Origin: a virus
IMG/VR virus record: IMGVR_UViG_3300036770_001342
Coordinates: 32,001-96,000 of that record
Length of the DNA stretch: 64,000 nt
Direction: 5' to 3' (one strand)
The notes beneath the pieces were generated by a model. It searched no databases. It was not told the DNA's origin and worked only from the letters and a program-made list of their open reading frames with translations. A program made the translations under genes and the position numbers. Positions within the stretch are counted from its first letter, which is position 1, and every line of letters starts with the position of its first letter. Positions 34,701 through 47,872 of this stretch are shown here, in pieces.

Positions 34701-36104
34701 AATATTTGTATTTGCTACAGTTTGTGGTATGCTTACAAAATATGTGTATTTTCCAGTAAGTCCTGTGGTTTCTGCATCATAACCAGTAATAGTAGTGCCA
34801 GATATAATTCCTGGACCTACTAATGTCATACCTATATTAAATGCTCCGGATACAACACTTTCAAGCGTTAGCAAATTCCCGTTAATTTCTCCATTTATAA
34901 CTGCGTTAGTAGTTACACCTGCTGATATCCAATTAGTATCACCTAAATCGGTTATCCAATACATGGCTCCTGCAACCATGCTTGATGCGGAAATTTCAGG
35001 AAAACCAGCCGGGCTGTATGCTCTAATATTTCCAAAAGTATTTCCGCTAAAAGTAATACTAGTGCCTATTTCTAAATTTTCTACACTAGTTAAGGTGATT
35101 TCGCCTGAAACGTTTATTTCAGTTGCAGTTGTTGTAATAGGAGCGACTAAATTAGCATAATTAGTATCGTATCTACCTTCGTCAAAGAAATTTGAAACAT
35201 ATCCTACTTCGTTGCTTATACCGGTATTGTAGAACATTACTGTTCTACCATTAAGTGATGTTACCCCATCAATATTATTAATGTCTGATAATTTTGCTCC
35301 ATTAATTTGCGCGAAAGGTTTAGTACTGACCACCCCTACCGGATTATTACCTGGATAATTAAAATTATCTTGCGCATCTTTAAACGGTACATTGAATGTA
35401 ATTATACCACTTTTTGCACCATTATTGTCTACACCGTATACATCACGCACATACAAATTTGTTTGTACCGGACTAAATCCGCTTACTCCCGGCTCACCTT
35501 GAATCCAAAATTGTGTATCTTGGTCTACAAAAAAGTTATAGGATCCGCCGCGAATTAATGTAATTGTAGGATTGTCCGCGCCTGCTCCTGCACCTACTGC
35601 TCTTATGTTATATGTATTAGGTAAACTTTCTACAATGTATTCGTTATTCAAAAATACTGTATCACTAGCAACGATTACTGCGGGAGGTCCTTCTGGTAGC
35701 CAGTAATACTGATTGTAGTTGATGATCATATCTAAGTTGGTAAAACTATCCCAACTGTAGAATTGACTATTAAACAAAGTGCTATTATCGGTAGTGATGC
35801 CGCCTTGTAATTTTAACGCATCTAACAAACCTGGATAACTTATAAAATCTTTTGCAACGCTTTCATTATCTTTTAAAAATGTGATACCGGGTTCTAATTG
35901 ATAATCTGTTCTAACTTTAGTTGGCTCCGTGACATAGTAATCGTTAGCATTAATACCGTAACCAAATTTACTTCCCACATAACCTTGAATTTTTTTAGTT
36001 AATGGAGGGTTAACTAATTGATCCAATGTAGCCGAAAGAAATTGGCTATTGGTTGGAGTTTGAAATATGCTTGGTAAAAATTCTAAGGTACGTATTCTGG
36101 TCAT
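16791..36104 (-). CDS. Giant (6437-aa) baseplate wedge/tail-fibre protein at the gp7-like position
   Basis: 19.3-kb uninterrupted ORF immediately after the gp6-like gene. Contains repeated beta modules (F.G..FGG....TYYVK.I; Y.IT.LGTTDW), FG-GAP-like and BNR-like propeller repeats, and an EVKPYH wedge-type motif. Confidence 0.8.
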   Translation of the reverse strand: MTRIRTLEFLPSIFQTPTNSQFLSATLDQLVNPPLTKKIQGYVGSKFGYGINANDYYVTEPTKVRTDYQLEPGITFLKDNESVAKDFISYPGLLDALKLQGGITTDNSTLFNSQFYSWDSFTNLDMIINYNQYYWLPEGPPAVIVASDTVFLNNEYIVESLPNTYNIRAVGAGAGADNPTITLIRGGSYNFFVDQDTQFWIQGEPGVSGFSPVQTNLYVRDVYGVDNNGAKSGIITFNVPFKDAQDNFNYPGNNPVGVVSTKPFAQINGAKLSDINNIDGVTSLNGRTVMFYNTGISNEVGYVSNFFDEGRYDTNYANLVAPITTTATEINVSGEITLTSVENLEIGTSITFSGNTFGNIRAYSPAGFPEISASSMVAGAMYWITDLGDTNWISAGVTTNAVINGEINGNLLTLESVVSGAFNIGMTLVGPGIISGTTITGYDAETTGLTGKYTYFVSIPQTVANTNIDVYDLQDGKIFTSTGPISGTGKVKRYDPFIYYVKTINPSNSTITISQSLNGPTFTPGPAASGSMTVRVNEGLYEEGFYVNVNDYFFTITYVGDINDPVIKLTPAISGLIPTEQKITAQFGTAYVGLNFFKNQDGFIEQYPYISAPLDTLYYQDGTNPNKVGVIRLIESNSLNTLNVNTQILGQKNFTSTNGVVFTNGLKVEFDGDVIPTSYLSGQYYVQGVGTAIELIPVETLVVPESFTTETSLPYDTTNFDIGNFDAALFIPENPDYITIARNSINRNAWSRSNRWFHSDVIKATAEYNDDPNILTTFANSANKAKRPILEFYPNLKLFNSGTVAKASVDFVDTRTTDAFSAVAGEAAYYPDVETYTNYSSLATINASPTVTQGQFLIGQQYRVTSIGTTAPAAWVALGVKVFVEGEFVPGIEYVITSLGTTDWNAIAGTIGVTYNIGSIFTAAYSGEIVGSGGGQAAETLFVAQSTGEINSNQIIAGIPYTITQLGTTLWENIGASPTPYVGETFVATAPAVGTGLATQGNGTSLSLTATTITIPAHEVVGNLTVGMYINDQIRYNQSQLPANTRILSIEGTSTYTITVFYPLPTIIPGSASLIVPPAFTSPEISFVANSKNNSDLLLFPGARIVFLNESTPLLKNKIYVANYSKTISGSYPIITLTEALDGEILANDQFAVLRGQNYQGTSFYYDGENFIQAQQKVTINQPPKFDVYDKNGISFGNEEFYESTTFIGCDLLRYKPGVGINDSILGFPISYSSINNVGDITFEVALNVDTFNYVTGIQQNVTETQKVNTGYVYNVTSRTDFERLIGWQTAVAPSVQYQIFEFKYTPDTTIEFAEGDTIFYTVNCDIAQLNVENTIWPSIEVYNNNNILTIDTDYTVEHGSNFTNVTVQIPALFETVIQVALLSNQTSQNAYYSIPINLSNNPFNSDVTTVDIGDIRGHYQSIFYNNPNTTGQVFGANNTRDLGNIIPWGNRIIQNSASLVLPGAFLRQAEHSLFDSLLYNSREYIKFKNLLVETANKIDWQQRYNPSALLDEALDEITSVKNQEMPFFWSDMIPNKAAFITNTYTFFNNIDTTTFPLSKIYNFTTANYDGVLVYLETKLQGTTVTKQLIKNIDYTISTDTPSLIVTKDLINGDKIIIKEYNQTYGSYIPNTPTKLGLYPASVPEVVLDNSYNQPTYFIVGHDGSYTKLYGNYDPVLGLIDYRDQVLLEFETRVYNNLKLSNTIPIQAADIIPGYFRSSTVNYDEWLNMYSATFLDWVGQNRLDYKTQLYLSTNEYTYNYTNSRDKLNKTIVQQGNWRGIYLYYFDTSTPNATPWQMIGYANKPAWWETRYGPAPYTSDNLILWQDMENGLDWNNGDPIEIEIYKRPGLLNILPVNDQGELINPLFALVGNYNPNTFQRDWTIGDVGPVEFSYRRSSTWPYDLMRLQALLKPANFFNLGVDIDNYKYNQEFNQFLIDDRNHLVPQDVQIYGNGTAKTSYINWIVDYEKQLGVDATTNIKNLLTNLDVRLVYRLAGFSDKTLLKFFVEKGTPGSQNSSLLIPDESYQILLYENQPYDKLVYSAVIVQLTSEGYKIFGNSQTTNYFKTLSPVINSNSKTITVEDQTVKVADDYSSTVKLIPYGTVFYTAQEVSQFLMSYGAYLKSIGAKFDIIESGLEINWEQMVAEFLYWTQVGWSVGSIVTLNPAANTLVVDKESQIVQPLTFRQTNFVLNQNLYPIESKDLSIVRDGTLFSVSALNVGDSIAYGQFNLSNIEHGIVFDNTTIFGDVVYNLISGLKQNRIFLQGTKSAEWNGTMFASGFIYNQDNIEEWRENTKYTKGAIVKFKNKYFTALTIVQPSKEFKETEWKETDYNEIQKGLLPNSSTRSYESALYYNTNEANLEEDGDQVAFSLIGFRSRPYMASADLTDITQVNVYKNFIKEKGTRSALSVFKGANLPQGGIDYNIYENWAIMSGTFGGVLNNNFIEFKLNQNLLTGNPGIVGLTTGQTVPGAQQVVPLYSLTNYGQPVNNSNVLPTISQYTPSTVFPDAGYVNFNDVKMSAYFFEQLSVGVNQNGIIVPINDFYVGDYVWIANYLAKWQVMTPNVIAQVIEANANLNGTTTIVFDRPHNLNQFDIFAIINFDNSVNGYYVATQIVNPYQVIVPLVLSNSVRTVTGQGIAYNFSSQRVNQPSDIQNLNLLSKEFVQNTAWVDLNNDGGWAVYRKGINYKYDADFSIENSVTFGSSVAFTSKGDYLFGDAGTGNVYRFQYDALNKVYEQDQTITNDVSFGTNIAYAQNVYAISQATVDPTIYFYYVNDTTITDDIEIFGTVLSAPAGSTNFGTGLAMSGDANWLYVSDYDTNPLNIRNKVHAYRRNNSIVNADALTTGLTYQITALGTTDFTALGAVENKVGIYFVYNGIAATGTGTATNIDYEFVTTIESPEITPDKFGSVIATNYYGNVVVVGSPEYDYDVNTENWGRAYVFNRMIQNFEVQENSTSTPSTFTLAFTPTGSQDPIIYRNGRIVSNTEYTIVGTSLSYTGTLKAGDILEINSCNFNLAQVLTTETNPRIGVMFGTGLDTNKFGNEIIVGAPFALNSTNEEGAAYRFTNAGARFGIVVGTENVNLTTSRDLLINGYLVTLPAGDSDLAALTINQAKITNIEAVSSNGKLIISVIDQNLATLNEKLLLSATDLTTFTELGLTLYTQTQVLQCPHLTGPTQFGYAVAFNESNSVVISAPSGTRYAQTTFDFVDDDDYSNDLVFDNNATQFVDSYPNAGAVYMYDYLANYEENLNNIGAYTYAQSVNAKDQVYGSQPYYGRVLDFNENKVIIGTPNYRPDDIDGQVIVYINELGIPNWSVYRQTNPIVDIDRIQNIQIYNTENNQTLINMDYFDPLQGKLLGAIRQNIDTISNIDPATYNNETNTQSGFVWGAEQTGTIWLDTTNMRFVNYHQNDNVYNSKYWGTLFPGSDVAVYTWVGSNVLPTEYQGPGTPRDVNSYTVQTIINSSNTIQPIYYFWVRNSGLVLGNKTLADVNIAAYIASPISSGITYFAPVDTNVFALYNSQQYINAQESVLHIGYSNGQNDDPSHQSYQLIREDFASDFLPGFVNPTQGIFEPRGLYDRLLDSLAGVDEEGGVLPDPFLPKLVQTGVLARPRQSFFYDRYTALQNYLQYANTVLSLFPITEIRPLISFLNEKGDYYDTTLYWERVNWWSPGYNDNTKAAIQVEFYADLSTLTVATGTIVAVNQNSQGFTEYYRLDENNVWTRIGLQNGTIRFKTELWDYSEGQTGYGDDFYGTTPYDQYPSRETRNIIRALNEQIYTDDLLIYRNKSLILLFEYIQTETVENQNYLPWLNKTSLVDVSHKIRELVPLQNFKSDNQEFLAGYVNEVKPYHVVIKEFLFEYTGEDIYQGNITDFDLPAAYDSATQSFITPQLVYSNPNQQDEFLPDDAVWELPQYTEWRNNYGVSLVGQENYLITETASYLPIGATFLIVDNAQGFPINGTIKIADVENPSRFEIIGYSSVDTNTNTLFGLTRGLNGTPEYDHIPGENVFIDLPPVVVLDGGRGYSNPPRVLAQIDLTKYPAPKEEAVLEAVMSLDSVVGINVINPGIGYAALPNIVIDPAATFTFTSDNVTAVESTIELYAPALQTGDLVRYVNVTGENIGGLENNQYYYINVLSNSPLTILALYANYSDALRDQNRVEIYSQGTGSNHKFELGAKASAVSSSYPIRENNITLRFDRTTYESQITDWVPGSFYGAFFAGSYNNTENVSSSSIDLQSTLPPINTILASNDGLVLPIVNVDNEREIDWSEFERTVANTSSSDIITLDVDVITENASGSTIGFTIGMPIKFIGIPGTSLIVPGTTYYVNEIINETQFKISATQYGPVYNVGDSSSATNLKCYTAQVIDTAIISTYYPGIRNVTATNSTNSVVTIPLTEIGTGGTTGLYTGIPIVFTGNVFGGIEEHVVYFVSAVLDKENFTISDTDEFVRIKALSINASNQIIVQNTTSLNVNDRIVFSNMTVEGEPVTSWGNIQQGNIYYVKTIDVNVITISETLGGSTFALTPVTSNSQTYCFFVDQETNFALTTANGNMTVNIQLPASPGQVDGQLFTFYPTSNQFTNITATNYGNLIERMIDHTSTAANLITLTHKSGGTTGMYIGMPITVDENIGGLIAGTTYTIEEIDEIKIAITNSSASSNTFTVDGTTSSLYENMPIVFSGNPLGSIIIGVTYYVKDIIDSTKFTIKDSLTGDTIALTTNNGSMIGTGPDYVKVNVAITSDDYGPATLSQKITVDPVFDVSYILGGYKVLISNPGAGLTANNTITIPGNLLGGSSPKNDLTIKVNKIDAIVPGTFSWSLPIESNGNIVSVICSGKPNAVTNNYYLKVITANQFKVYSDPRMTIPVSGLTLGYQGATVSTVSSVASNGVITLNDVSEFNLNSAVVFTGNVFGNITLGQTYYITNIDTGSSTITISDEPGGLPVTTSVESGSMTVASSGSFMFLPEPFYFNQSIVKYNNRVYICVVSNNDDQFVFGKWEELNSGDRRLNAMDRVKGYYQPTINMPGTDLNQLFTGVTYPNTTYKGNAFDPADQYDIDTILQDQIFYPENVSINGIAWNGVNYISPANLPNYTAIAKDMEVTDDWLLGRLSNKPLNITDIIKTDDLYVMTSTNSATPILTSTDANGWSINGFFVPFGVEDNELEFERKLLIQSKLAFNNVAYGNGKYVAVGQNICTSDSAVNWVETYKFTTGNTGYIYDVAYVETATFTGFIAVGTKNSNKLVLQSIDGEIWTETLAFINTGATFAQRTAPLKSVTFGNNIVVLAGDLGVVYRSIPGGYAFQGAYGSATSWNSSAYGDGVFAIVGNNGKLITSVNGLTWTEKTTGTTENLNKIYYNSDKNEWTIAGNNNTLFQTSNMNADPIVWDRTQLFSIPDPAYTIKGDPFMSGYGPEELVPGIVTDQLTMTVTTRPGTNWPATEYAHVGYNVVSIELDYDSSGEYSFADVVEVPSSIAVYITDNSLSTAIYPNNDYVVDYVNKTITLNTNITETQQLRVDVYEVGNGDQLVKSNTQIDPLRDNSNTGFQEIWLNCNYTADRLNGSGIIRPTTDPTSTEAIATDSLLNTITVNDVSIFTLNDDVYFTGEVFGGLNENTPYYVKTIDSVQKTITVSDSINEGIAGPIFDLTSDTGSGMIAVAQNGPGLYWTPPAVFYNGNKLINGDTNLVIRSKASDNSLITYSTVGLLPNQKIIFDNNIFGGLIPHKTYYIKEVLSGGTQFTVSDTVGGPAVTLTNALGKSNFITEDYAVMLADNQISAKVVFASEYDTSVDYISFTFFGETLPTQYGYTLPQTQVFAGNGTKGSYYLTNYLGEDNDTNAIVEVNGLRIMPDQYTINYNQAVLVFDTLEPTVNDTIAVTTFNDTQRQYLNTQYELSPINVTAINNVYNTITQPLLDTQTSSAVGGYFIADSTTNMVIGQNVLFQIDIPGSSPVYQGFGGVNTDGTEYKVHEVISGNRFKVIDENGLEYPTVNDSGLMHVAVGGQPAVRVQTAVPHLLSTNDLVRIDGIQGSVQLNNNLFYVHVINSEQFDLYQYFPEHPEENYSPYVDAVNYPITISDSYISGGYVWPSDTWILETTRVTSCTSTELEVQNILPLVLYTPVYFTESNVKLGTSTSIPQIIAGEKYYISSIDHDNNKISVSETINGAPILLTPQLSTNIVLTQWEQTNVDRLWVTVNGKRVPSSELRLNAANEVSILAPIGIDDEIVITSMMPSATPNEMVYVNTVDKNNQGTVYRANSDSRTWLTEVLTEYQNIVYVNDINNLTFKSVQTNVAPIKEAGYYYIPLNADKNDIIDVSVYNNTLGREGLIEEDFLQLEVRSTGPYIRIQEGDWIEQGDLLTITVYEGKLIYMQGEYMRVLSVDQFTNSMEVERGANGSGIQVYIPKYTEVYSFLDKNTMTNINYNDTWNKIPGIYNTTQGDPLQIAEGSAPNFLRLDV

Positions 36105-36105
36105 T

Positions 36106-39100
36106 TTATGCTATTTGTAATTCGTTTGGTGTCAATGCAGGGATAACTAAAATATCGTTTGCTGTTGCTGCGTTAACAAATATTTCAAAAGGAGCACACT
36201 TAATTTCATATAGTGTTCCAAACGGTTCGTTTGGATCATTTGGAACTAATACTGCCGAACTAATTAAACTACCTAATTGATTGTGTAGGTAGGCGCTTAA
36301 TTCTGAGAAGAAGAAGGTGTCTCCAAAACTCCAATTATTAATATCAAAATACTGGTTCATACTTGTTAATACTGCACTGCGTATTTCACTGTCACTTGCT
36401 GTCGTTGTGTTGTTTTTAATAACTTTAATTGTTCCTCTTAAAGCCTGTGCTGCTTTAGGACCAAATAAAGGTTTAAACACTACACTATTTAATACCACAC
36501 TATCACTCAACATTTTGTAATCATTTACTTTACTATAACTTGCTGACAACTCAGCAATAGTAGGTCTTGATGGTTCTGGTATTGTATTAGTAGTATCTTG
36601 AACATAATTTGAATAGGCTGTATAATATGCTTGAGTTACAACATATAAATCAACTATGTTTGTTGTAGCAGGATCAATACGTGTTGTGTTATTGCTATTG
36701 TGTCTGTATTGAAAACTAAAACCTTGTCTACCATACTTAATTGAATATTCTGGTTGAGGAGTTAATACATAGAAAGGTGTTCTAACTGTAGTGTCTTGAA
36801 CAGTTTTATAAAAAATATCATCACTAAAAGCGTAGAACAGTTGACCCACAGGATAATCGTACTTTACTACTTCAATTTGATCCATTGTACCATATTGATA
36901 AATGACATCTACTGATGGAACAATTTCTAAACGTGTTAGATTTGCTGCATCCTGAACTGTTCTAAAAAATACATATTTTCCTATATTGCTACTACCATTT
37001 TCAACACCTGTTAGTGTGCTGAAAAAATCTGGATTTAATATCAATTGTTTATTATTTGTGTCTGTTGCGCTGACTTCTACCTCAAAGTCATTTACATAAC
37101 CATCGCTTTCTACTGTTTGACCTAATATATTAACTTTGTAATCGCGCCCTAAAGCACTAGTAGAACTTGGTGCAGTATTAATACCTAAAACATTAATGAA
37201 ATCTTGTAGTATTTTACCGCTAAATGGATCGTACACAACTTGATTTAAATTGTATGTAAATCTAGTATCGCTAACACTTCCAAAATAATAACGTAATGAA
37301 CGTACTAGTATTTGATATCTGCGATTACCTAAACTAGTAAATTGAACAAACCAATTATTATCATTATGTGGACGTATAGTCCATCTGTCCTGATTAACTA
37401 GTAGTGAATTATTAAAGACCAAACTAAAATCTTGTTCTAATTCCATTTTAACAATGGCTTCTTGTATATTTGAAATACTAATTGAATTATCAAATACAGG
37501 AATAATTTGTGATAGTAAACAACCACTAGGCACAAATCCATTTAATGTTACTGGTCCATTACCGTTACTAAAATTACCTTCACCATTATTACTACCATCG
37601 CCTATTACATTTAATACAGTAGTCCAAAGCGTTGTTGGATTAGTGCCCGGCAAACCTAATACTAATCTATTATTATTATCAAAGTAATAACCAGTTGGAG
37701 CAGTAAATTGTAGCATTGCTCCTTTTGTAATATATTTGGTATTAGTAGTTGAGAAAATACCTATCTGTGTTGGTACTCTTATAGTTAAATCTACATTATA
37801 AAAATAACCATTTTCACTTGTAGCATCTACTGTGCTTGTTTGCCAGTATACTGCTGAAGAGCCAGTGCTAGGTGTAGTAAATCTTTTGTACCAACTACCT
37901 TCAGTAGTGCTTGTTTGATTTATATAATATTGATTAGCACGATTTAACGCTAATGTTCCGGCAAGTGTATCTGTAAAGAAATTGATGACATCACTATTAT
38001 TATTAATAGTTAAATCTAAAACAATATTATCATTGTTTTCCCAAATTGCACCGTCATCACCAAAACTGTTGATACTGCTATATTTGCCTGTTGGATCAAG
38101 CAAGTCTAAATTCTTTGATACACCAATCGAACTGCGATTGATCGCTTTTGATTTTATAATTGAACTGTATAATGTATATGGGAAATTATTATAATCTTCA
38201 CCATTAACCATACGATTCTGTGTATAGTAACGTGTTGGTGCGCGTTGTTTGATGCTCGGCAAACTTTCGCGTGATTGTGCATTGCTTACTGGTTGTGTTA
38301 ACTGTAATCCTAAAGTTAATGTTTCAGCACGACCTTCTCTTGTAATATAAGTAAATGCAACTGTAATGCCTTGCATTTCATTTGGATCAATTGTATAAGT
38401 TAATCCGTTACTTGAACGAACATATGCTCTAAATGTTCCAACAGGAATGTTACTAAACACGCCGTCACCAAAATTATAAGTGACTTGATCATTAAATCTT
38501 GAACTTACACTAAAAATACTTTTTTGTGATGTTTCTGTTTGCAAATAAGCATTAGCATAAACATTGTCAACTTGATTCCATAATATGCGTGTGTTGTTAT
38601 TTGCATTTAACTGATATAACCATGTATCTGTATTGTTTATGCCTTGAATATTAATAGGTACTGCTTGATTAGCAATTTGTTGTTCTAACACAAAATCAAA
38701 ATTGTTTAATGAGCCCTGTTTAAAATAAAAGAAGTAACCAGTATTTGCACTACCAAAACCTAATCTGTCGTTTCTATACAACATATTAAATTTACCAGTA
38801 GGTGCCGGTGGCAATTCATATAATGCATCGCTGTCTACACTGGATACACTTACTAATTCAAAATTCATGCTAATACCATCAACTGATGTGCTGAATGGTA
38901 CTATTGGTAAACTGTTTGCAGGTATTTGTATTGCGTACTCTGCTGTTGCTACGCCTAATAAGTCGCTTACGTTGCCCGGTCTACCTACACGCTGACTACT
39001 AACTAAAGCAGCATTAATAATTGTATTATACTGTTCAAACCAATTTGGGTTTGCTGGGTCATTCCATAATATAATAGCATTACTTAAATTGACACCGTTA

Positions 39101-39495
39101 AAATCTGTTATGTTTTGTGTAGTTTGTATGCTGACTATTTTTAGCATACCTTCAGCACAGAGATTGCGTTTTGGTGTGTAACTGACTAGATTTGCTAGTT
39201 TGATAACGCTATCTCTACGCTCTGCTGTGTCGATAAAGTTCTCGCGGGCGTTTAAGTCATTTCTAAATGCAAGACCTTGACCCATGAATGCCATAACGTC
39301 AAGTAGTGCGATAAATTCTGACGATTCGATATAATCGTTATATGTTTCTGGGTAGTAAACACGCAGGTAGTCTATGAAACTCTTGCGTAATGTTTCATAG
39401 TCATAACTTCTAAAGTCGGCTTCGCGGAAAGTCTGGTAGATTGTTTTCCAATCATTTACACCAAATAATGCCGCTTGTCTAGAACTTGTAGCCAT
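36106..39495 (-). CDS. gp6: Baseplate wedge subunit, T4 gp6-like
   Basis: DYETLRKSFIDYLR, LLDVMA, ENFIDTAERRDSV..LA....Y.P, FGDG, ES...IK..AP..Y..QNRMV..EDY. Confidence 0.85.
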   Translation of the reverse strand: MATSSRQAALFGVNDWKTIYQTFREADFRSYDYETLRKSFIDYLRVYYPETYNDYIESSEFIALLDVMAFMGQGLAFRNDLNARENFIDTAERRDSVIKLANLVSYTPKRNLCAEGMLKIVSIQTTQNITDFNGVNLSNAIILWNDPANPNWFEQYNTIINAALVSSQRVGRPGNVSDLLGVATAEYAIQIPANSLPIVPFSTSVDGISMNFELVSVSSVDSDALYELPPAPTGKFNMLYRNDRLGFGSANTGYFFYFKQGSLNNFDFVLEQQIANQAVPINIQGINNTDTWLYQLNANNNTRILWNQVDNVYANAYLQTETSQKSIFSVSSRFNDQVTYNFGDGVFSNIPVGTFRAYVRSSNGLTYTIDPNEMQGITVAFTYITREGRAETLTLGLQLTQPVSNAQSRESLPSIKQRAPTRYYTQNRMVNGEDYNNFPYTLYSSIIKSKAINRSSIGVSKNLDLLDPTGKYSSINSFGDDGAIWENNDNIVLDLTINNNSDVINFFTDTLAGTLALNRANQYYINQTSTTEGSWYKRFTTPSTGSSAVYWQTSTVDATSENGYFYNVDLTIRVPTQIGIFSTTNTKYITKGAMLQFTAPTGYYFDNNNRLVLGLPGTNPTTLWTTVLNVIGDGSNNGEGNFSNGNGPVTLNGFVPSGCLLSQIIPVFDNSISISNIQEAIVKMELEQDFSLVFNNSLLVNQDRWTIRPHNDNNWFVQFTSLGNRRYQILVRSLRYYFGSVSDTRFTYNLNQVVYDPFSGKILQDFINVLGINTAPSSTSALGRDYKVNILGQTVESDGYVNDFEVEVSATDTNNKQLILNPDFFSTLTGVENGSSNIGKYVFFRTVQDAANLTRLEIVPSVDVIYQYGTMDQIEVVKYDYPVGQLFYAFSDDIFYKTVQDTTVRTPFYVLTPQPEYSIKYGRQGFSFQYRHNSNNTTRIDPATTNIVDLYVVTQAYYTAYSNYVQDTTNTIPEPSRPTIAELSASYSKVNDYKMLSDSVVLNSVVFKPLFGPKAAQALRGTIKVIKNNTTTASDSEIRSAVLTSMNQYFDINNWSFGDTFFFSELSAYLHNQLGSLISSAVLVPNDPNEPFGTLYEIKCAPFEIFVNAATANDILVIPALTPNELQIA

Positions 39496-40004: not shown

Positions 40005-40012
40005 TATTTATC
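40005..40012 (-). promoter_or_regulatory. Late promoter GATAAATA
   Basis: TATTTATC ends 5 nt before ATG 39999, implying a very short or absent leader. Confidence 0.55.
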
Positions 40013-41843
40013 TTACTGTTCCGGGACGCCCTGTCGTTTGACTCGTACTATTTTTACTTGTATCCGCTGTGTTTCTAATAGCAAATTCAGGGAACTCTTT
40101 ATATAAATCATCTAGTTGTTTTTTAATAGCATTTCTTTCTGCTGCTTTTGCTTCATATTTTGCTTTTAGACTTGCAACGATACTTGACCCTTGAGGTAGT
40201 GTGTTTTCAGCAAGCCCATGTGCGGTATATGCTGCCATAAATTCTTCATTTTTCTTTTTGAATTTTTCTTTAAGTTCTTTTTGCTTAACGATAAACTCTT
40301 TTCTTTCTTCTGTAGTTTTTTCTATCTTGCCTGACGCTTGCTCACTTACACCTATATAATTAGGTTCTGGTATAGCCGCATCGTTCATAGCATTTCTTAA
40401 TTCGGCTGCTATAGTTTTTCTATCTGGCACAGTATTCACACCGGCACTAGGTGATTTTAATCCTAATCCTGCTGCTGATATCGAACCTAAAGCATTTTGT
40501 AACAGTGATGCTGCTCCTGCAGGGAGTTTGCTTGAAACCATATCTACAAGACCATTTACACCTGATGCATTATTCAATATAGATAATCCTTGTGTCTGTA
40601 TGTTGTTCATAGCGTCTGCTGATAAATTTTTAAGTTCTGCTTGTAAATCAGCAGTGCCGGGTAATTCTGGAGCATTTCCTTTACTAAAGTCGGTAATGCT
40701 AGCAACAGATCCTAGTGATCCGGGTAAGTTGTTTAATCCTGCTGCTAGTGAGGCTGCTGTTGTTGCCAAAGAACCAGTATTAGTGGCTGTAGCAAAATCT
40801 TTAAGTGAGGTGCCTGTAAATGGATTTGATAGAATATCAGGTAGTTCTGCTCCACTATCCATACTTGTACTGCTGCTAAGAGGAACGTTTGCTAAATTCA
40901 TTAATGATTGCCCTACACTGCTTATTCCTTGAGGTAAGCGTGTAGTGCCCGTTAATCTACCTTGTATTTGTTGAGATAATTCGTTAGATGAAGATCCTAA
41001 TGAGGCGTCAGATACTTGTAGTGCTTTTAATTTTTGTAATTCTATTAAATCGTTGGGTTGATTTGGTTTTAGATTAGGTATACTATTTTTAATTGTTTCG
41101 TATGCATCTGCTTGTAATCCTCGACCAGTGCTTACTAAACTACTTGAATTTGGATTTTTTGCTAAACTTTGCAATGCTGTTTCAACACCGCCTAAAGTTC
41201 CTAATCCACTTTCTGCTAACTTGCCTGCATAGTTACCCGCTTCAATATCTTTTTGTGTTTCGTCTAATAATCCTATAGGTTGTCTTTGTATTAAAGTACC
41301 ATTTAAATCTCTATTGCTTTTTATTGTTCCTAAAACACTATCAACACCATTGTTGGCTGCACTTAATACAACACCGTTAATTTCACTAGGTGCTTCTGCA
41401 CCTGTAATTAAACCTGAATTTTGTAACGCTGTTTGCGCTACCTGTAAATTTTTTACAACAGCATTTGATTGTGCCGGAATATTTCTAACAAAACTATTAT
41501 AATCTTTTGCACCTGACTTGCCTGTAAAAATAGCAGGAGGCATTGCCTGTGATATGTCATTGCCTGATGATAACAAACTTTGAACTAAACTACTTGACCC
41601 AGGTTTAATAATACCTGCGTTCTCTAATTGTTTTGGTGTTAGTGCATATTGTCCTATGTAGGTTTCTGCACCTTGCGGTGTTTCAATAGTAGTATAACCC
41701 TTCGTAGCGGCGGGTGCCAAATCACTTTGAACAACATTTTGTGCTATTGTACCCAATGTAGCCTGTGTGGTTAGTGGCCCAATGCTAGGACTTACTTCAG
41801 GAGTTTTTGTTGCTTTTATTATATTGGCACTATCAACTATCAT
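40008..41843 (-). CDS. Virion protein downstream of the spike gene; possible lysozyme-like N-terminal segment and C-terminal coiled coil
   Basis: YIGQYALTPKQLENAGIIKPG motif, Ser/Gly/Ala-rich middle, charged helical C-terminus. Confidence 0.45.
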   Translation of the reverse strand: MIVDSANIIKATKTPEVSPSIGPLTTQATLGTIAQNVVQSDLAPAATKGYTTIETPQGAETYIGQYALTPKQLENAGIIKPGSSSLVQSLLSSGNDISQAMPPAIFTGKSGAKDYNSFVRNIPAQSNAVVKNLQVAQTALQNSGLITGAEAPSEINGVVLSAANNGVDSVLGTIKSNRDLNGTLIQRQPIGLLDETQKDIEAGNYAGKLAESGLGTLGGVETALQSLAKNPNSSSLVSTGRGLQADAYETIKNSIPNLKPNQPNDLIELQKLKALQVSDASLGSSSNELSQQIQGRLTGTTRLPQGISSVGQSLMNLANVPLSSSTSMDSGAELPDILSNPFTGTSLKDFATATNTGSLATTAASLAAGLNNLPGSLGSVASITDFSKGNAPELPGTADLQAELKNLSADAMNNIQTQGLSILNNASGVNGLVDMVSSKLPAGAASLLQNALGSISAAGLGLKSPSAGVNTVPDRKTIAAELRNAMNDAAIPEPNYIGVSEQASGKIEKTTEERKEFIVKQKELKEKFKKKNEEFMAAYTAHGLAENTLPQGSSIVASLKAKYEAKAAERNAIKKQLDDLYKEFPEFAIRNTADTSKNSTSQTTGRPGTVR

Positions 41844-41846
41844 ATG

Positions 41847-43328
41847 TTATCCTCTACCTCTTGTAAGAGGACCTTTAGGTGCAGTAGGTAATTTATTACT
41901 TGCTGCTCCGCTTGTTTGTACATTAACACCCAATCCTGCCATATCCCATGGCGCATGTGCTGGTGCGCGACTAGTAATACTTTTAAGTTTATTTGGTGCA
42001 GCAGTCCAGCCTTTTGTATTATCAAACAATGTATCTGTATGTTGGGTTTGATCAATGACTGGTACAGTTTGTGGGTTGGTTGATGTTTTGCCGGAGTTTA
42101 AATTTACTCTGCTACCATTAACAAATGCTTTTGCACCACTAGCCATACTTATATCACCTTGACTATACATGCTGTATGGACCATCTGCTTTTACTGTATG
42201 TGTGCCTGTAGTATACTGATTGAAGTTTGCTCCCGATCTTACTTTCATATCTTTTTTACTTTCAATCTGTATATTTTCTGCTTGTATATTAAGATTTTTA
42301 GTGGCATGTATGTTTACGTTATTATCTGCGTGTAGGTTTAAATCACCCTGTGTTCTGACGTTTACGCTGTTTGTACTATAAACATCGACAGTTCCTTCTT
42401 TACCCAATTCAATATAACTTTGACCGTTAGCGTGTAGTATCATTAATGTTTGACCACTGTCGCTCATCATAATCTGATGCCCTAATGATGAACGTATGCG
42501 TACTAAGTTATCTTTACCTGCTATGTCGCCGTCATCCATTACAATACTATGTCCACCGCGACGAGCAACAACTTTTAATTGTTTATTTTTTTCTTGTAGA
42601 TTATCAACAACTGTTTCGTCATTGTAGCCGCCTTCATATATTGGACGTCCGGGTGTGCTTACACCAAATCCTACTCTGCTTATATTTTCACGTTGTGCGC
42701 TACTTGTAATAGGACCGCGAATAGGATCTCTAATAACACCCTGCTGCCACATAGTACTTGCTATCCAACTCTGTACAGGTTTTGCGGCAGTCAAATATTT
42801 TGTTGTGTTTGAATATTCAGGGTTATTAGAATTAATATTTGTTGTTGGCAATATAGGTGCATCACCATACTTTTGCGCTTCAGTAGGGTTAGGAACGATA
42901 GCATTAGTTGCGCCTATAGCCGGCACCATTTGTAGTGCATCTGCTTCAGGAATACATCCTATGTAAAACCCACTGTCCAATTGTCCATCAGCAAAAATAC
43001 ACAATACTTGTGTGCCCACATCCGGCGGACTAAACCACATGCCATAACTACTTGAGTTGCCTTTATATGTTCCTTCTCCTGAGTTAGGACTAGTTGCCCT
43101 AGTTAATCCATAAAAAGGACTTAAAAATTGTACCTTACGCCAATTGCGATAATCTTCGGGGTCGGTACCGCTGTTATCTAATAGATAAACTTCTAATGTT
43201 CCCATACGTTTAGGATCGCTATTGTTTTTAACGATACCTATTACAGGTGTTAATCTGGGGTTGGCACCACCACTGAACGGACTATTTCTTTTTGTAGGGC
43301 CTTTGGGTTTTTGTACGTCTTGTGCCAT
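41847..43328 (-). CDS. gp5: Baseplate central spike, gp5/VgrG-like (OB fold plus beta-helix, no lysozyme domain)
   Basis: GIVKNNSDPKRMGTLEV, SYGMWFSPPDVGTQVLC.F, GHSIVMDD, beta-helix repeats, C-terminal RAPAHAPW. Confidence 0.8.
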   Translation of the reverse strand: MAQDVQKPKGPTKRNSPFSGGANPRLTPVIGIVKNNSDPKRMGTLEVYLLDNSGTDPEDYRNWRKVQFLSPFYGLTRATSPNSGEGTYKGNSSSYGMWFSPPDVGTQVLCIFADGQLDSGFYIGCIPEADALQMVPAIGATNAIVPNPTEAQKYGDAPILPTTNINSNNPEYSNTTKYLTAAKPVQSWIASTMWQQGVIRDPIRGPITSSAQRENISRVGFGVSTPGRPIYEGGYNDETVVDNLQEKNKQLKVVARRGGHSIVMDDGDIAGKDNLVRIRSSLGHQIMMSDSGQTLMILHANGQSYIELGKEGTVDVYSTNSVNVRTQGDLNLHADNNVNIHATKNLNIQAENIQIESKKDMKVRSGANFNQYTTGTHTVKADGPYSMYSQGDISMASGAKAFVNGSRVNLNSGKTSTNPQTVPVIDQTQHTDTLFDNTKGWTAAPNKLKSITSRAPAHAPWDMAGLGVNVQTSGAASNKLPTAPKGPLTRGRG

Positions 43329-43330
43329 GT

Positions 43331-45868
43331 TTATCCTTTAAATCTTCCTGTACGTATTAATTCAATTTCGTCAGGTACATATCCTAAATTAAACAACTCT
43401 GCATCACTTAAACTATTTAAATCAGTAGGTTCTCTACCTTGGTTTTCTGTTTGCGGAGCATTGTCAGGTACTGGTTGAACGTTACTGTCATCGTCAGCCA
43501 CTTGTCCTTTAGGAGTGGTAATAGTTTCTTGACTACTTTGCTGTGATGGTGCTGCTTGTGTAGCGGGTGATCCTTCTTGCGGAGCCTTAGCAGGTTTGCT
43601 ACCCGGAAAAGTAGGACCTATCAAGTTTAACGTTTGTTCAAATCTACCATTTGCAAAAACACTATCAACTTCTGTTAACATATAAACGATGTTGTCTTTT
43701 GCTATCGCTTTAACATCATCTGGATATTCTATAAACAAAATATTTTGATTTATTTTTTGTAATCCTGTACCGTCGTTGTAATCTTTGCCTTCTTTAAAAC
43801 TTACTTCTACAAATACTTGTCCACCTTGAGCGTTAACTGTAAAGCCATCGGTGTCGTAGAATTGGTCGTATAGTGAACTAAGTGATGAAACTCCATCACG
43901 TACTAAAAAGTCTGGATCTCCTAAAATTTTCATACGTCCAGAATAGTATGCACCTAAATCATTTAGATAAGTTACAATACTATTTTGTGCTTCTAGTCCT
44001 ACACCCAATGATGAAGTTCTGTCTCCATTATTTCTTACACCGGTAGCGATAGGCATTATTCCGCCACCGGTTGCAGTACCTGCAGGGTTGTCACCACCAC
44101 CGCCGTCTGATCGCAACCCTGTATTACCTGATGATGCACCATTACCTCCGGTACCCGGACCAGAATTATTTGCAGGATTTTGTGCTTCTCTGCCGCCCGC
44201 ACTTGTTTGACCGCCACTTCCAGCCGCGTTTACTGAAGGTCCTAATCCTAACACACTATTAAAATACAGATAGTTAAAATTAAAATTCATATCTAAAATT
44301 TCAGTATTTTGTCCTGTAAACCAATATTCATATCTTTTGTGAGGACCATAATACTTTTTACCTGCTATACCATATGGAGTTTCTATACTAGGTACATCAT
44401 ACATTTGTATAACATAATTCATTTTATATACCCAGTCTCCTAATATTGGATCCCAATTTGCTTCAGTAATTTCTGGTTTAATGTTTACCCATCTAATAGG
44501 TGCAGGTTCTTTTTGAGTTTGTTCGTAATTTTTCTTTTCGACATCGGGTTCTTGGGCGTTAAGAAAAATAGTTTTTAATGCTTTTTCCATAAACGTGCTG
44601 CGTTTAATGATTGTTTCTATCGCTGATATAATCGCAGTGTCTTGATTAAATTGAAACTCTCTTTCTGTGGGTTCCGCAGTTTTATAATTTTGTCCGTCAG
44701 TGGATTCACCGGTCGTAGTCGCAGTTGTTGATCCCCAACGATATTTTTTTAAATCGGCGTCTGAAACTAACGGTGCGTCCTTAATTAAAATTTCTGCATC
44801 GCCTAAATATGTAACTGTGTATTCGTTGGCAAATTTTTGACTTGGAGGATTTATTGTTGTTTTATCTTTTTCTATTTTGTTTAAATTTTTAAACAATCCT
44901 AATTCGCCCATTAATGCGTCATGTACCGTTTTTCCTTTAACTTTATTTCCTTGAGGCATTCTACCACGTTTAATACCAAACAGTGCTTGACCATTTACGC
45001 TTACAGCCTTACATTGATATTGTACTGCTCTGCCATTAATTTGAAATTTCATTTCACTAATTTGAATATCATAAAAATTTTCAAACAATGCATCGCCACC
45101 TAATGGATCAATGGCGTTTCCATAACGTGCATCTGATCCTTTTACTAGTCTACCGTCTTGATCATATCCGTAAAAACGAATACCTAAAACAAAGAACTGT
45201 CTAAATGCATTAAACAATTGTTGATAGTCTGGTGTGCTACTATATGCTTTAAGTGCCTCACTGGCTCTTTTTAAATCACTTAAAAAACTAAATCCATATG
45301 GCTCAGTAATAGTAAATGATAATTCTGATACTGCTGTTGCTGGCGCGCCGGTACTTTTTGTACTAGTAAGTGTTTTAAATCTTAAGTTATCTATAAAATA
45401 ATCTACCGGCTCATTTTGACTTGATGGGGGCATTCTTTGACTGTTTGAATTATTAATACCGCCGCTTTGTGCAACAATAAATGCTCCACCTGTTACAGGT
45501 TTTGAACCTTGCCCCACTGGAGTAGCGCGACTTAATGCATCAATTTTTTTTCTACCTGAAGCCACAAAAGCCTTATATGCGTCAGGAGTAATCATATACA
45601 AACTAATATTGTAAGTGTAACTTGCTAGTTTACTTAACGGGTTGTTTAATCTACGACCGGGTCTGCCGGCTGCAGGAGTTGGTTCTGCAACTCTTTTACC
45701 TGTTACTACAACTTCTTCTAAATCGTCTTTGGTTGTTGAAATACCTATTTCTGGTATTCCATCTGCGCCTATAGTTGCTTCTTGACCTGGGTCTGTTGGT
45801 CCAAATCCATCTACTGCATTTTTCTTATTAGGATTACTATCATCGTTATCCAAATTTTCATTTGCCAT
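43331..45868 (-). CDS. Baseplate hub protein (gp27/gpD-like) with disordered termini
   Basis: Lies between the gp53-like and gp5-like genes; FTITEPYG, MKILGDPDF and VDSVFANGRFEQTLNL motifs. Confidence 0.65.
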   Translation of the reverse strand: MANENLDNDDSNPNKKNAVDGFGPTDPGQEATIGADGIPEIGISTTKDDLEEVVVTGKRVAEPTPAAGRPGRRLNNPLSKLASYTYNISLYMITPDAYKAFVASGRKKIDALSRATPVGQGSKPVTGGAFIVAQSGGINNSNSQRMPPSSQNEPVDYFIDNLRFKTLTSTKSTGAPATAVSELSFTITEPYGFSFLSDLKRASEALKAYSSTPDYQQLFNAFRQFFVLGIRFYGYDQDGRLVKGSDARYGNAIDPLGGDALFENFYDIQISEMKFQINGRAVQYQCKAVSVNGQALFGIKRGRMPQGNKVKGKTVHDALMGELGLFKNLNKIEKDKTTINPPSQKFANEYTVTYLGDAEILIKDAPLVSDADLKKYRWGSTTATTTGESTDGQNYKTAEPTEREFQFNQDTAIISAIETIIKRSTFMEKALKTIFLNAQEPDVEKKNYEQTQKEPAPIRWVNIKPEITEANWDPILGDWVYKMNYVIQMYDVPSIETPYGIAGKKYYGPHKRYEYWFTGQNTEILDMNFNFNYLYFNSVLGLGPSVNAAGSGGQTSAGGREAQNPANNSGPGTGGNGASSGNTGLRSDGGGGDNPAGTATGGGIMPIATGVRNNGDRTSSLGVGLEAQNSIVTYLNDLGAYYSGRMKILGDPDFLVRDGVSSLSSLYDQFYDTDGFTVNAQGGQVFVEVSFKEGKDYNDGTGLQKINQNILFIEYPDDVKAIAKDNIVYMLTEVDSVFANGRFEQTLNLIGPTFPGSKPAKAPQEGSPATQAAPSQQSSQETITTPKGQVADDDSNVQPVPDNAPQTENQGREPTDLNSLSDAELFNLGYVPDEIELIRTGRFKG

Positions 45869-45869
45869 A

Positions 45870-46184
45870 TTAGATACCTAACACTTGTCTTAATGTTTCC
45901 ATTTTAGGTATGTATATTTGAACGCCGGTTACAAAATCAAAGTATGGATCAAAACCCAGTCTGTTAGGATTACGTGCAGCAAACACCCACCACAATCTAC
46001 CATCGCTATACAAGTCATACGCTAATAAATCAGGGCGATATTGATAGACTTCTGGTATGGTATAAAGAACATCGCTAGAGAAACTAGGTATAGGTCTATA
46101 TACCATAAAGTCTAAGAACTTGTCATTAAAAATTCCTGTATCTTTATAAGGACTTGTTGATGGATATAAATTATTCTGTGCCAT
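45870..46184 (-). CDS. gp53: Baseplate wedge protein, gp53/LysM-like
   Basis: YQYRPDLLAYDLYSDGRLWWVF..RNP...G.QIYIP. Confidence 0.8.
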   Translation of the reverse strand: MAQNNLYPSTSPYKDTGIFNDKFLDFMVYRPIPSFSSDVLYTIPEVYQYRPDLLAYDLYSDGRLWWVFAARNPNRLGFDPYFDFVTGVQIYIPKMETLRQVLGI

Positions 46185-47872
46185 TACCAGTGACCTGCTC
46201 CTTTTCTACCTTGTGCTCCGTAACCTCTTATTAAGTTACCGTTAGCATAATCTTTAAGACTAAACACGTTACTTGTTTCATAACGTGACATAATAGGTAC
46301 ACAACTTATTTGTAAATTAATTTTAGTTGGTACATAAGTTACATTTTGTTCATTGACAAACGAACCCGGTTTAAATCCTGACTGTACCCAATCAGGTGCG
46401 GACAATGCACCGCCTGGTGTTAGATTTAAACCTATTGCATTACCTACTGCTGCTATACCTTGTGACAAACGCCCCTGAATGTAATCCTGTGCCATTTGAC
46501 CCCAACCTTTTTTGATGACAGGTTTATTTGGGATATTTGGTGTTCTTTTTCCTGTAATTGTAACTTCTTCTAGTCCGTCACTTTCAGGATTAGCACCTGC
46601 TCTAATATAATCAACATCTGATGGCAATACGTAATTAAAGTTTTGTATTGCTAATGGATGCGCATTGAATTGAAATTCTCCTAACCCATATAGAAAACAC
46701 ATTGGTGGAGGTGTGCCTGGTTTAGGATTTTGATCTTGACCATAAAACATTTTAGTTGCGCTTCTAAAAAAATGTATGACCGCTAATAGATATCTTGCTT
46801 CTGTAGTGTCTTGCGCTGTAAATTCACAACCAATATTAATATTGTCTACATAACTATTTTCATATTGATAATATCTATAGTTGCTATGTGCAGGATCGCT
46901 TGGTTGATAATTTGCCCCATATGTAACTTGAATGTTTGGAGTGTATGGAAAAATTACTCCGTCAGTTGTTCTTAATGGTTCTAGTAATGTATTACTGCTA
47001 TCATTGTAAAGATATGTAGAGCCGGGTGACAATGCTAAACGCACTCTCCAATCTTTTCTTGCTTTAAAATTAGTAGATTCTCTTTGAGTTGTTTGATTAC
47101 GTGCATTGTTGGTTGCGCCGGTCGTACTGTTTGGTCTACGTGCAGTAACTACAACCTCTTCTAATCCATCATCTTCTGGTAAATTAAAATTAGGAGCATC
47201 TACGTTGATAGGACCTGCTCCTATCATACCGGGTTCATCAACTACAAGGTTATCGCCAAAATTAATATTAGGTGCGGAAACATTTACATCTCCTGCAGTG
47301 CCAGGAATATTAGGGTCAGAAATTTCTAAATTGTTATTAAGTCTTGAGCCGGTTACTGTAACAGTAGGTAAGTTAGCATCGGGATCATCAATATTTGTAT
47401 TTGCCGGAAACTGAGCACCTGCTGTACCTGTACCCTGCGCATTTACAGGTATACTTGCGCCCGGACCTTTACCGGCACTACCGGGATCGCCATTACCTGC
47501 ATTATTTGTACTTTGTGTTGATTGTCTAGTTGCTTGCTGCGCTTTAGCATATGCGGCATTAACTTTAGTTACAATTGGTTCTAAACGTTGAGCCAAACTT
47601 GTAAATTGATTCAACAATGCTCTTGCTTGATCTGCTTGCGCTTTACAACCTGCTCTAGTTGCTTGTTCTATAAATTGTGTAAGATAGGTCACTACTATTT
47701 GTGCTTGACCTAAATCTACGTTAACAGCATTTGATATGCTGCTTAGTGAGGGTATATCAGTAGGTAATGTTCCAGACCCGCGACTAATACTTTGATTTCC
47801 TCTACTTAAGTAACTAGTAAAGTCACTACGTTGTTGATCTAATTCTTTTTGAAAATCTGCACAAGTTGCCAT
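46184..47872 (-). CDS. Tail tube initiator/baseplate junction protein (gp48-like) with a long low-complexity N-terminal extension
   Basis: GVIFPYTPNI, FTAQ...EA.YLLA..HF.RS.TKMFYG, G.PPP.C.L.G.G...F motifs. Confidence 0.65.
   Translation of the reverse strand: MATCADFQKELDQQRSDFTSYLSRGNQSISRGSGTLPTDIPSLSSISNAVNVDLGQAQIVVTYLTQFIEQATRAGCKAQADQARALLNQFTSLAQRLEPIVTKVNAAYAKAQQATRQSTQSTNNAGNGDPGSAGKGPGASIPVNAQGTGTAGAQFPANTNIDDPDANLPTVTVTGSRLNNNLEISDPNIPGTAGDVNVSAPNINFGDNLVVDEPGMIGAGPINVDAPNFNLPEDDGLEEVVVTARRPNSTTGATNNARNQTTQRESTNFKARKDWRVRLALSPGSTYLYNDSSNTLLEPLRTTDGVIFPYTPNIQVTYGANYQPSDPAHSNYRYYQYENSYVDNINIGCEFTAQDTTEARYLLAVIHFFRSATKMFYGQDQNPKPGTPPPMCFLYGLGEFQFNAHPLAIQNFNYVLPSDVDYIRAGANPESDGLEEVTITGKRTPNIPNKPVIKKGWGQMAQDYIQGRLSQGIAAVGNAIGLNLTPGGALSAPDWVQSGFKPGSFVNEQNVTYVPTKINLQISCVPIMSRYETSNVFSLKDYANGNLIRGYGAQGRKGAGHW

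Follow-up and report, generated by a model that had tools for sequence, protein, structure and literature searches.

Candidate TonB-box mimics on two predicted tail-tip proteins of a phage from IMG/VR

Introduction

The proton-driven ExbB-ExbD motor pulls on a TonB box that has been engaged by TonB. TonB boxes are carried by pyocins as well as by transporters. Colicins that are taken up via TonB also carry their own box (PMC11658791), and pesticin is a further case (PMC3390615). Here, we describe four short peptides that resemble TonB boxes in two predicted tail-tip proteins of a phage. The two proteins, which are a tube-initiator-like protein of 562 amino acids and a central baseplate hub of 845 amino acids, are encoded in a stretch of 64,000 nucleotides (the window). 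The window corresponds to bases 32001-96000 of the 106.9-kb IMG/VR record IMGVR_UViG_3300036770_001342, and all coordinates are window positions unless another locus is named. An earlier reading of this DNA, which was made from the sequence alone (the sequence-only reading), had proposed that the tail tip might use the host's TonB motor directly. Our analysis partly supports its interpretation. That reading knew of no phage-encoded TonB box in a contractile tail tip, and the literature that we searched (with incomplete coverage) likewise gave no description of a phage virion protein with a TonB box; the only phage papers concerned the box of FhuA in infection by T5.

The passage of DNA from contractile phages across the periplasm and the inner membrane is poorly understood, and this is true even of T4. 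Once the T4 tail has contracted, the gp5-gp27 device is released from the tube, and the (gp48)6 ring then forms the distal end. This ring and the tape measure hold the DNA back, and the ring flares open when it is on a lipid bilayer (bioRxiv 10.64898/2026.03.06.709160). Also, gp27 of T4 cross-links to inner-membrane proteins (PMC11054660).

Results

Four motifs in disordered segments of two proteins

Three of the peptides are in the 562-residue protein (motifs 1 to 3), and the fourth is in the hub (the hub motif; see Table 1). The sequence-only reading had located them correctly: all four are in minus-strand frames, and the pattern [VI][VIT][VI]T[AG]x[RK] has only these four matches, with no fifth, in all six frames of the window and of the entire 106.9-kb record. 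That reading had also suggested a comparison with shuffled sequences. When the residues of the three motif-bearing arms were shuffled 200,000 times, the mean was 0.001 motifs per shuffle, and no shuffle ever gave two or more, versus the four that are seen. The copies often use different codons for identical residues, so it is the peptide that is under selection, and we rejected a DNA-repeat origin of the motifs.

Another claim of the sequence-only reading was that the motifs are in acidic, probably disordered segments that are rich in proline, glycine, and asparagine, and the AlphaFold models agree as to the disorder. All four motifs are in stretches with a predicted local distance difference test score (pLDDT) below 50 and with no predicted secondary structure (residues 135-271 and 428-463 of the 562-residue protein, and residues 1-73 of the hub). 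The arms that bear the motifs are rich in G, N, A, and P. AlphaFold left the motif strands undocked on the carriers' own cores, which says nothing about contacts between subunits. The motifs are not followed by a Plug domain, a barrel, or a signal peptide in either carrier, whose predicted folds are those of a tube initiator and a hub.

We also noticed that a conserved strand in the folded core of the hub (residues ~262-278) matches relaxed TonB-box patterns. Its sequence is FYDI.ITG.K (near residues 270-280), or FYDI.I..[MI]K in homologs. We took this strand to be a false positive, and any census of the motif should mask it.

Similarity to bacterial TonB boxes

We scanned bacterial genomes, with one genome per species, for DNA encoding L-E-E-V-[TVAI]-V-T-G-x-R. 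This gave at least 80 loci, and the counts that follow are among the matches listed. In 67 of 79 open frames with the decapeptide, the frame runs directly into a Pfam Plug domain. In Proteobacteria, the motif is ~25-70 residues from the start of the frame; in Bacteroidota, it is ~100-150 residues in, after a CarboxypepD_reg domain. The other frames with the decapeptide are cut frames or are chance matches in Gram-positives. One transporter from Arcicella aurantiaca (locus L103) has the exact sequence of the hub motif, LEEVVVTGKR, ahead of its Plug domain.

To score the motifs, we built a TonB-box matrix from the residues just upstream of Plug in the 30 best of the 91 Plug matches in A. aurantiaca. 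In 29 of these 30 best proteins, L-x-E-V-V-V-[VT]-G is found upstream of Plug, and the matrix is made from these 29 boxes. The consensus is that of one freshwater member of the Bacteroidota. Also, we knew the motif when we picked the anchor for aligning the boxes, so the scoring is mildly circular. Across the 48,603 eight-residue windows of the phage record, the hub motif had the highest score (25.8 bits) and motif 2 had the second-highest (23.1 bits), versus 11.4 bits for the best unrelated window. The sequence-only reading had considered all four peptides to follow the TonB-box pattern. This is borne out by the Plug domains in the bacterial frames and by the high ranks of the hub motif, motif 2, and motif 3 (first, second, and fifth), but it does not hold up well for motif 1, which is a weak match (rank 21, 4.3 bits). 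As judged from their sequences, the four peptides are copies of TonB boxes, and the motif is real and probably a TonB-box mimic.

The A. aurantiaca genome (loci L103 and L217) has 12 matches to TonB_C besides its 91 Plug-domain matches. It also contains a canonical exbB-exbD-exbD-tonB operon (L217:2832-6218).

Conservation among homologs

The sequence-only reading had suggested scanning the homologs of both proteins, and the motif is indeed found in many of them. Among 120 homologs of the tube-initiator-like protein, 61 carry one to five box-like decapeptides, which are often in tandem, 14 residues apart. The motif is also present in 25 of 120 hub homologs, with the N-terminal arm as the location in 9 of these, the C-terminal tail in 14, and both in 2. 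In 80 related loci (1 Mb), we found 26 motifs in the 111,000 residues of the two carrier families, versus 1 motif in the 225,000 residues of other open frames. The gp5-like spike, which is encoded next to the hub, had no motif in 74 homologs from these loci. We found no sign of more boxes across the genomes of five large relatives, as the counts for the pattern were near those for a reversed-pattern control.

At the site of motif 1, which is kept in the 12 nearest homologs shown, relatives have LQEFTVTG.R or IPEITVTGTR. Of these 12 homologs, 11 retain motif 2 (P0011 is gapped there, and P0012 has a variant), and motif 3 is kept, with variants, in all 12. In these 12 homologs, all three sites are better conserved than their flanks. 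In other clades, the N-terminal arm of the hub has IPEITITAKR or VPEIVITADR, and in one clade, the box is on the hub only. Since the copy number varies, the location shifts between the N- and C-terminal ends, the flanks are less conserved, and the segments are predicted to be disordered, the motif behaves as a position-independent short linear motif and not as a strand of a fixed fold.

The gp48-like homologs that lack the box (P0030, P0033, P0037, P0049, and others; P0034, P0091, P0098, and others) have different linker modules, also conserved, in this arm. Examples of these modules are GIPL[IL]GDDG[ST]VVQGFA.NPETG.VYQTVD and DP..A.LEAKNKALAEA.A.GPDTL.

Recurrence on tail proteins of other phages

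When we searched IMG/VR with the DNA pattern for the decapeptide, we found 33 stretches (L258-L290), versus ~3 by a rough chance estimate. The 33 stretches contain 35 open frames with the motif, which fall into six families. Seven of the frames encode relatives of the tube-initiator-like protein, and three encode relatives of the hub. Another nine encode gp5-like spikes (Gp5_OB, and phrog_430 at 2e-80), with the motif at residue 391 of 531. Nine proteins of 780-1115 amino acids have 1-3 boxes each and a weakly tape-measure-like end (E ~1e-5); their genes sit among virion and fibre genes. One protein is a T4-type tail tube cap (phrog_230 at 1e-44). The last six are small proteins (184-198 amino acids) without a family. 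In representatives of the four families that are unrelated to the hub or the tube initiator, we found no Plug domain. The carriers with an assigned family, among which the tape-measure-like proteins are weakly assigned, share a location in or at the end of the tail tube.

The gene for one small protein (L267) follows podovirus-like internal-virion and fibre genes.

Predicted folds of the carrier proteins

Neither carrier matches any family in Pfam at E ≤ 0.01, and searches of the PDB by sequence and by profile with both proteins gave nothing meaningful. The AlphaFold model of the 562-residue protein begins with a confident three-helix bundle (residues 4-120). This is followed by the arm that bears motifs 1 and 2 (with pLDDT < 50 at residues 121-126, 128-130, and 135-271) and by a core with the tube fold (residues 272-427 and 510-545). 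Within the core, there is a disordered insertion with one helix (residues 428-509), which holds motif 3. The core aligns, over 140-146 residues, to tube initiators or baseplate tube proteins of PVC (6j0n_b, Z = 8.7), phage P1 (9ay5_G, Z = 8.7), T4 (5iv5_BE, Z = 8.6), and cyanophage A-1(L) (8kea_R, Z = 8.5). These Z values are middling; Foldseek gave such matches as well. As the Z values are middling and there is no match to a Pfam family, we label the protein as tube-initiator-like, and not as a proven member of the gp48 family. The gene order supports this label for the model.

For the 845-residue protein, the model has 38 Foldseek matches in the PDB with E ≤ 1e-3 and a probability of ~1.0. 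These include VgrG (8gra_G, 1.5e-6), gp44 of phage Mu (1wru), gp27 of T4 (1k28_D), and several other VgrGs. Going by its model, the protein is a central hub of the gp27/VgrG/Mu gp44 type: it has the predicted fold, and its gene is adjacent to that of a spike. So, with the more cautious wording for the 562-residue protein, the sequence-only reading had named both carriers well. The hub is predicted to be disordered in its N-terminal arm (residues 1-73), in a glycine-rich stretch (residues 533-637), and in its C-terminal tail (residues 761-814).

The tail-tip genes and their source

The two carriers are encoded within a tail-tip module of four co-oriented genes on the minus strand, whose products have 562, 104, 845, and 493 amino acids (Table 1). 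The gp53-like gene sits between the genes for the two motif carriers, and the gene for the gp5-like spike is directly after the hub gene. The spike has no match to lysozyme. The order (gp48-like, gp53-like, hub, spike) is kept in phage Phosso, Vibrio phage 2.275.O, and phage SCTP-2. In these phages, the module adjoins divergent genes for gp46/gp47-like nucleases.

Table 1. Motifs, disordered arm, and tail-tip genes, with coordinates in the window
Feature	Coordinates	Strand	Basis or score
Motif 1, LPTVTVTGSR, residues 168-177 of the 562-residue protein	47342..47371	-	rank 21, 4.3 bits
Motif 2, LEEVVVTARR, residues 237-246, where the disordered arm of the 562-residue protein ends	47135..47164	-	rank 2, 23.1 bits
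Motif 3, LEEVTITGKR, residues 434-443 of the 562-residue protein	46544..46573	-	rank 5, 10.6 bits
Hub motif, LEEVVVTGKR, residues 50-59, in the N-terminal arm of the 845-residue protein	45692..45721	-	rank 1, 25.8 bits
IPEIGISTTK, residues 38-47 of the hub, a degenerate second copy of the hub motif, immediately before it	45728..45757	-	sequence context
Disordered arm of the 562-residue protein, residues 121-271, with motifs 1 and 2	47060..47512	-	AlphaFold pLDDT
Tube-initiator-like (gp48-like) protein, 562 amino acids	46184..47872	-	open reading frame; phrog_12050 at 4e-45
gp53-like baseplate wedge protein, 104 amino acids, without the motif	45870..46184	-	Pfam Phage_gp53 at 8e-6; phrog_7145 at 1e-21
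Central baseplate hub (gp27/VgrG/Mu gp44 type, by its model), 845 amino acids	43331..45868	-	AlphaFold model and Foldseek
gp5/VgrG-like spike, 493 amino acids, without the motif	41847..43328	-	phrog_13211 at 2e-33; weak matches to Phage_base_V/DUF2345

In some near relatives, the hub gene was called at ~990 amino acids, with 143 extra residues at the N terminus (P0121, L002-L004). We considered that these might be fusions of gp53 and the hub, and rejected this, as the extra residues are not gp53-like. The extra N terminus probably reflects a start codon that was set too far upstream, so that the call overlaps the gp53-like gene.

Downstream of the spike gene, there is a single open reading frame of 6437 amino acids (16791-36104, minus strand), which is presumably a giant fibre or adhesin. 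Between it and the spike gene are open reading frames of 611 amino acids (40008-41843) and 1129 amino acids (36106-39495).

CheckV rates the record as 31% complete, so the genome would be roughly 350 kb. The G+C content of the window is ~35%. The relatives of the 562-residue protein that we found with tblastn are virion proteins of jumbo myoviruses: 121Q/PBECO4, CBB, Atu_ph07, XaC1, SCTP-2, and Phosso.

The host is probably Gram-negative, as all of the cultured relatives found by tblastn infect Proteobacteria, and as a transfer-messenger RNA (tmRNA) in the record has a tag that resembles those of Proteobacteria. This is a permuted (two-piece) tmRNA with the tag ANDDVYSLAA, which ARAGORN identified outside the window (G000:C1:14949-15375, minus strand; L291). 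In the bacterial scan, among the matches listed, VTGK is present only in boxes from Bacteroidota. These leads to the host are weak and divergent, with VTGK pointing to Bacteroidota and the tmRNA tag pointing to Proteobacteria; both groups are Gram-negative.

Discussion

A proposed role during entry

We propose that the four peptides mimic TonB boxes, and that they are displayed by the flexible arms of the hub and the tube-initiator-like protein, which would close the distal end of the tail tube. If the copy numbers are like those of T4 (a trimer and a hexamer), then each virion would have ~21 boxes. Contraction of the sheath would carry the hub and the tube initiator through the outer membrane and into the periplasm. 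This location would suit the proposal, as the corresponding parts of T4 do enter the periplasm, where gp48 gates the release of DNA at the membrane. There, the boxes would pair, as an extra β-strand, with the C-terminal domain of the host's TonB, like the boxes of transporters and group B colicins, and the ExbB-ExbD motor would pull on the arms. This pull could have either of two outcomes: the plug formed by the hub and the spike would be pulled off of the tube, or the gp48-like end of the tube would be drawn to the inner membrane and its gate would be opened for the DNA. We put the chances that the peptides bind TonB during entry, and act in this way, at about even.

The sequence-only reading had also raised the idea that the boxes might sequester TonB. 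This is unlikely, because a virion would carry few copies. We also considered that the phage might encode a TonB_C domain as an internal partner for the boxes, but we did not find this domain in the record (~31% complete), in three complete relatives, or in two fragments.

Alternative explanations

Several observations weigh against our proposal. As mentioned above, motif 1 is a weak match to the boxes of transporters. Furthermore, residue 5 of the motif is usually polar (T, Q, or S) across the phage family, while it is V or I in the transporters sampled. About half of the homologs lack the motif, as do the cultured relatives Phosso, Vibrio phage 2.275.O, and SCTP-2, which have the same gene order, so the motif is not essential to the design of the tail. 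And in several sister clades, peptides that are unrelated to the TonB box are common to the disordered parts of both proteins (the tube-initiator-like protein and the hub) within one phage: RFDDGSSIQTF.DGSTLV (L013); ENVFDP[ST]GNNG (L015 and L019); YYENDGT, with three copies plus one (L031); or SD.EAYPPNP, with many copies (L032). Such peptides are almost never common to the spike or to other neighbours. It appears that the arms of the hub and the tube initiator display a common peptide that varies between clades, and its partner could be a host protein that varies by host or a phage protein that co-evolves with the arms; the sequences fit both. The shared peptides in sister clades do raise the odds of a partner within the virion. 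For the clade with the TonB box, we still favour a host target, because of the exact match to a host motif and because the motif recurs on unrelated tail-tip proteins. The motif might instead be a docking strand that is used within the virion or during assembly, either by binding one phage protein in common (for example, the tape measure, the spike, the wedge, or a chaperone) or by mutual pairing. For instance, the arms might be mutual amphipathic β-strands that form a plug in or under the tube, and the likeness to TonB boxes would be convergence on a good edge strand. A common phage partner that co-evolves with the peptide accounts for clade-specific shared peptides, often repeated, at least as well as a host target does. 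The alternation in V-x-V-T, with a polar middle residue in most members of the family, suits a one-sided β-strand, and the relatives that lack the motif build the same tail. However, a match at 23-26 bits to the consensus L-E-E-V-V-V-T-G/A-x-R of the transporters would not come from a generic strand, nor would the decapeptide then recur in other phages on spike, tape-measure-like, and tube-cap proteins that are not homologous. The variable copy number and the jumps between the N- and C-terminal ends would also be unusual for a fixed structural contact. That AlphaFold did not dock the strands on their own cores is uninformative about contacts between subunits. Pairing between the hub and the tube initiator is not a general reason for the motif, as in one clade the hub alone carries the box. 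Overall, we think that a role within the virion is rather unlikely, though well worth keeping in mind.

If the boxes do bind a partner in the periplasm, then they might do so without any use of force, either as an anchor to TonB, to a paralog, or to a TolA-like domain, or as a local decoy that blocks either TonB-dependent uptake or superinfection by phages and bacteriocins that depend on TonB. The same sequence evidence that suggests our proposal fits this idea, and the 12 TonB_C matches in one freshwater Bacteroidota genome imply that there can be many related docking domains. But if the stoichiometry is as in T4, then ~21 boxes per virion cannot titrate the cell's pool of TonB. Nothing points to TolA, and the sequence cannot separate an anchor from a user of force; we consider binding without force to be decidedly unlikely. 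As for neutral origins, the motif might be a captured fragment of a transporter gene, a site for the prohead protease, a DNA repeat, or chance. The T4 prohead protease cuts at L/I-x-E, which L-E-E does fit. However, the seven residues beyond the glutamate are conserved across homologs of 40-86% identity, and we rejected the protease site because conservation extends so far beyond L-E-E; furthermore, tail proteins such as these carriers do not meet the head protease. The shuffles (0.001 motifs expected versus four seen) argue against chance, the synonymous differences between copies exclude a DNA repeat, and no Plug sequence follows the motif, as it might in a captured fragment. A neutral or chance origin seems very improbable. 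Finally, the arms might be an exchangeable display of peptides that hijack host machines, with TonB boxes in this clade and peptides for other periplasmic or inner-membrane machines in the sister clades. This would parallel the split of the colicins into groups that use Ton and groups that use Tol. We did not find the strict TolB-box pattern of colicins, DG[ST]GW, in any of the homologs. We regard an exchangeable display as quite unlikely.

Implications

If our proposal that the boxes bind TonB during entry is correct, then it would supply a concrete step in the passage of DNA: the phage would plug into the host's proton-driven Ton motor with its own tag instead of the receptor's. The peptides would be a new class of natural TonB ligands. 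Mutations in tonB or exbBD would be a new route to resistance against phages that do not use a TonB-dependent receptor, and such phages could be recognised in metagenomes with the motif as a sequence marker. The peptides that are shared within sister clades give a wider handle on interactions at the tail tip. And if the arms were an exchangeable display, then contractile phages would commonly borrow the motors of the host's envelope to uncork the tube or to reach the inner membrane.

Comparison with known systems

The phage motif has the same 8-10 residues, L-[ED]-E-V-x-V-T-[GA]-x-[RK], as the boxes of TonB-dependent transporters from Bacteroidota and Proteobacteria, such as FhuA (residues 7-11) and BtuB of E. 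coli and the SusC-like proteins. As in the transporters, the motif is in a segment that is (by prediction) flexible. Unlike the transporters' box, it is on a virion protein, it has up to five tandem copies, and its middle residue is mostly polar.

The predicted hub and the tube-initiator-like protein have the fold classes of the gp5-gp27 device, (gp48)6, and (gp54)6 of T4, and the neighbouring genes are gp53-like and gp5-like in both phages. At the family level, the carriers do not match the T4 proteins by sequence (neither has a Pfam family at E ≤ 0.01), and they are much longer, because of their disordered arms with short motifs and the N-terminal helical bundle. The contacts of T4 gp27 are DamX, SdhA, and PpiD, and not TonB (PMC11054660). 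In contrast, infection by phages T1 and phi80 depends on TonB and on the proton-motive force (PMC11658791), which is similar to what we propose. As far as is known, the TonB box on which T1 and phi80 depend is that of FhuA, their receptor, while here the box would be the phage's own.

The nearest precedents are the group B colicins B and M, which are foreign proteins that have their own TonB box and hijack the Ton system for import (PMC11658791). A TonB-box sequence in a disordered N-terminal region is common to the phage proteins and to group B colicins and pyocins. We do not claim that the carriers are colicins: neither has a receptor-binding or killing domain, and the rest of each protein has a predicted virion fold. 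Colicins are soluble toxins that thread through a transporter, while the phage's boxes would be on the tip of a contractile tail, which crosses the outer membrane by mechanical force. If our proposal is correct, then what is new here is that a phage virion protein would hijack the Ton system, as was known so far for bacteriocins.

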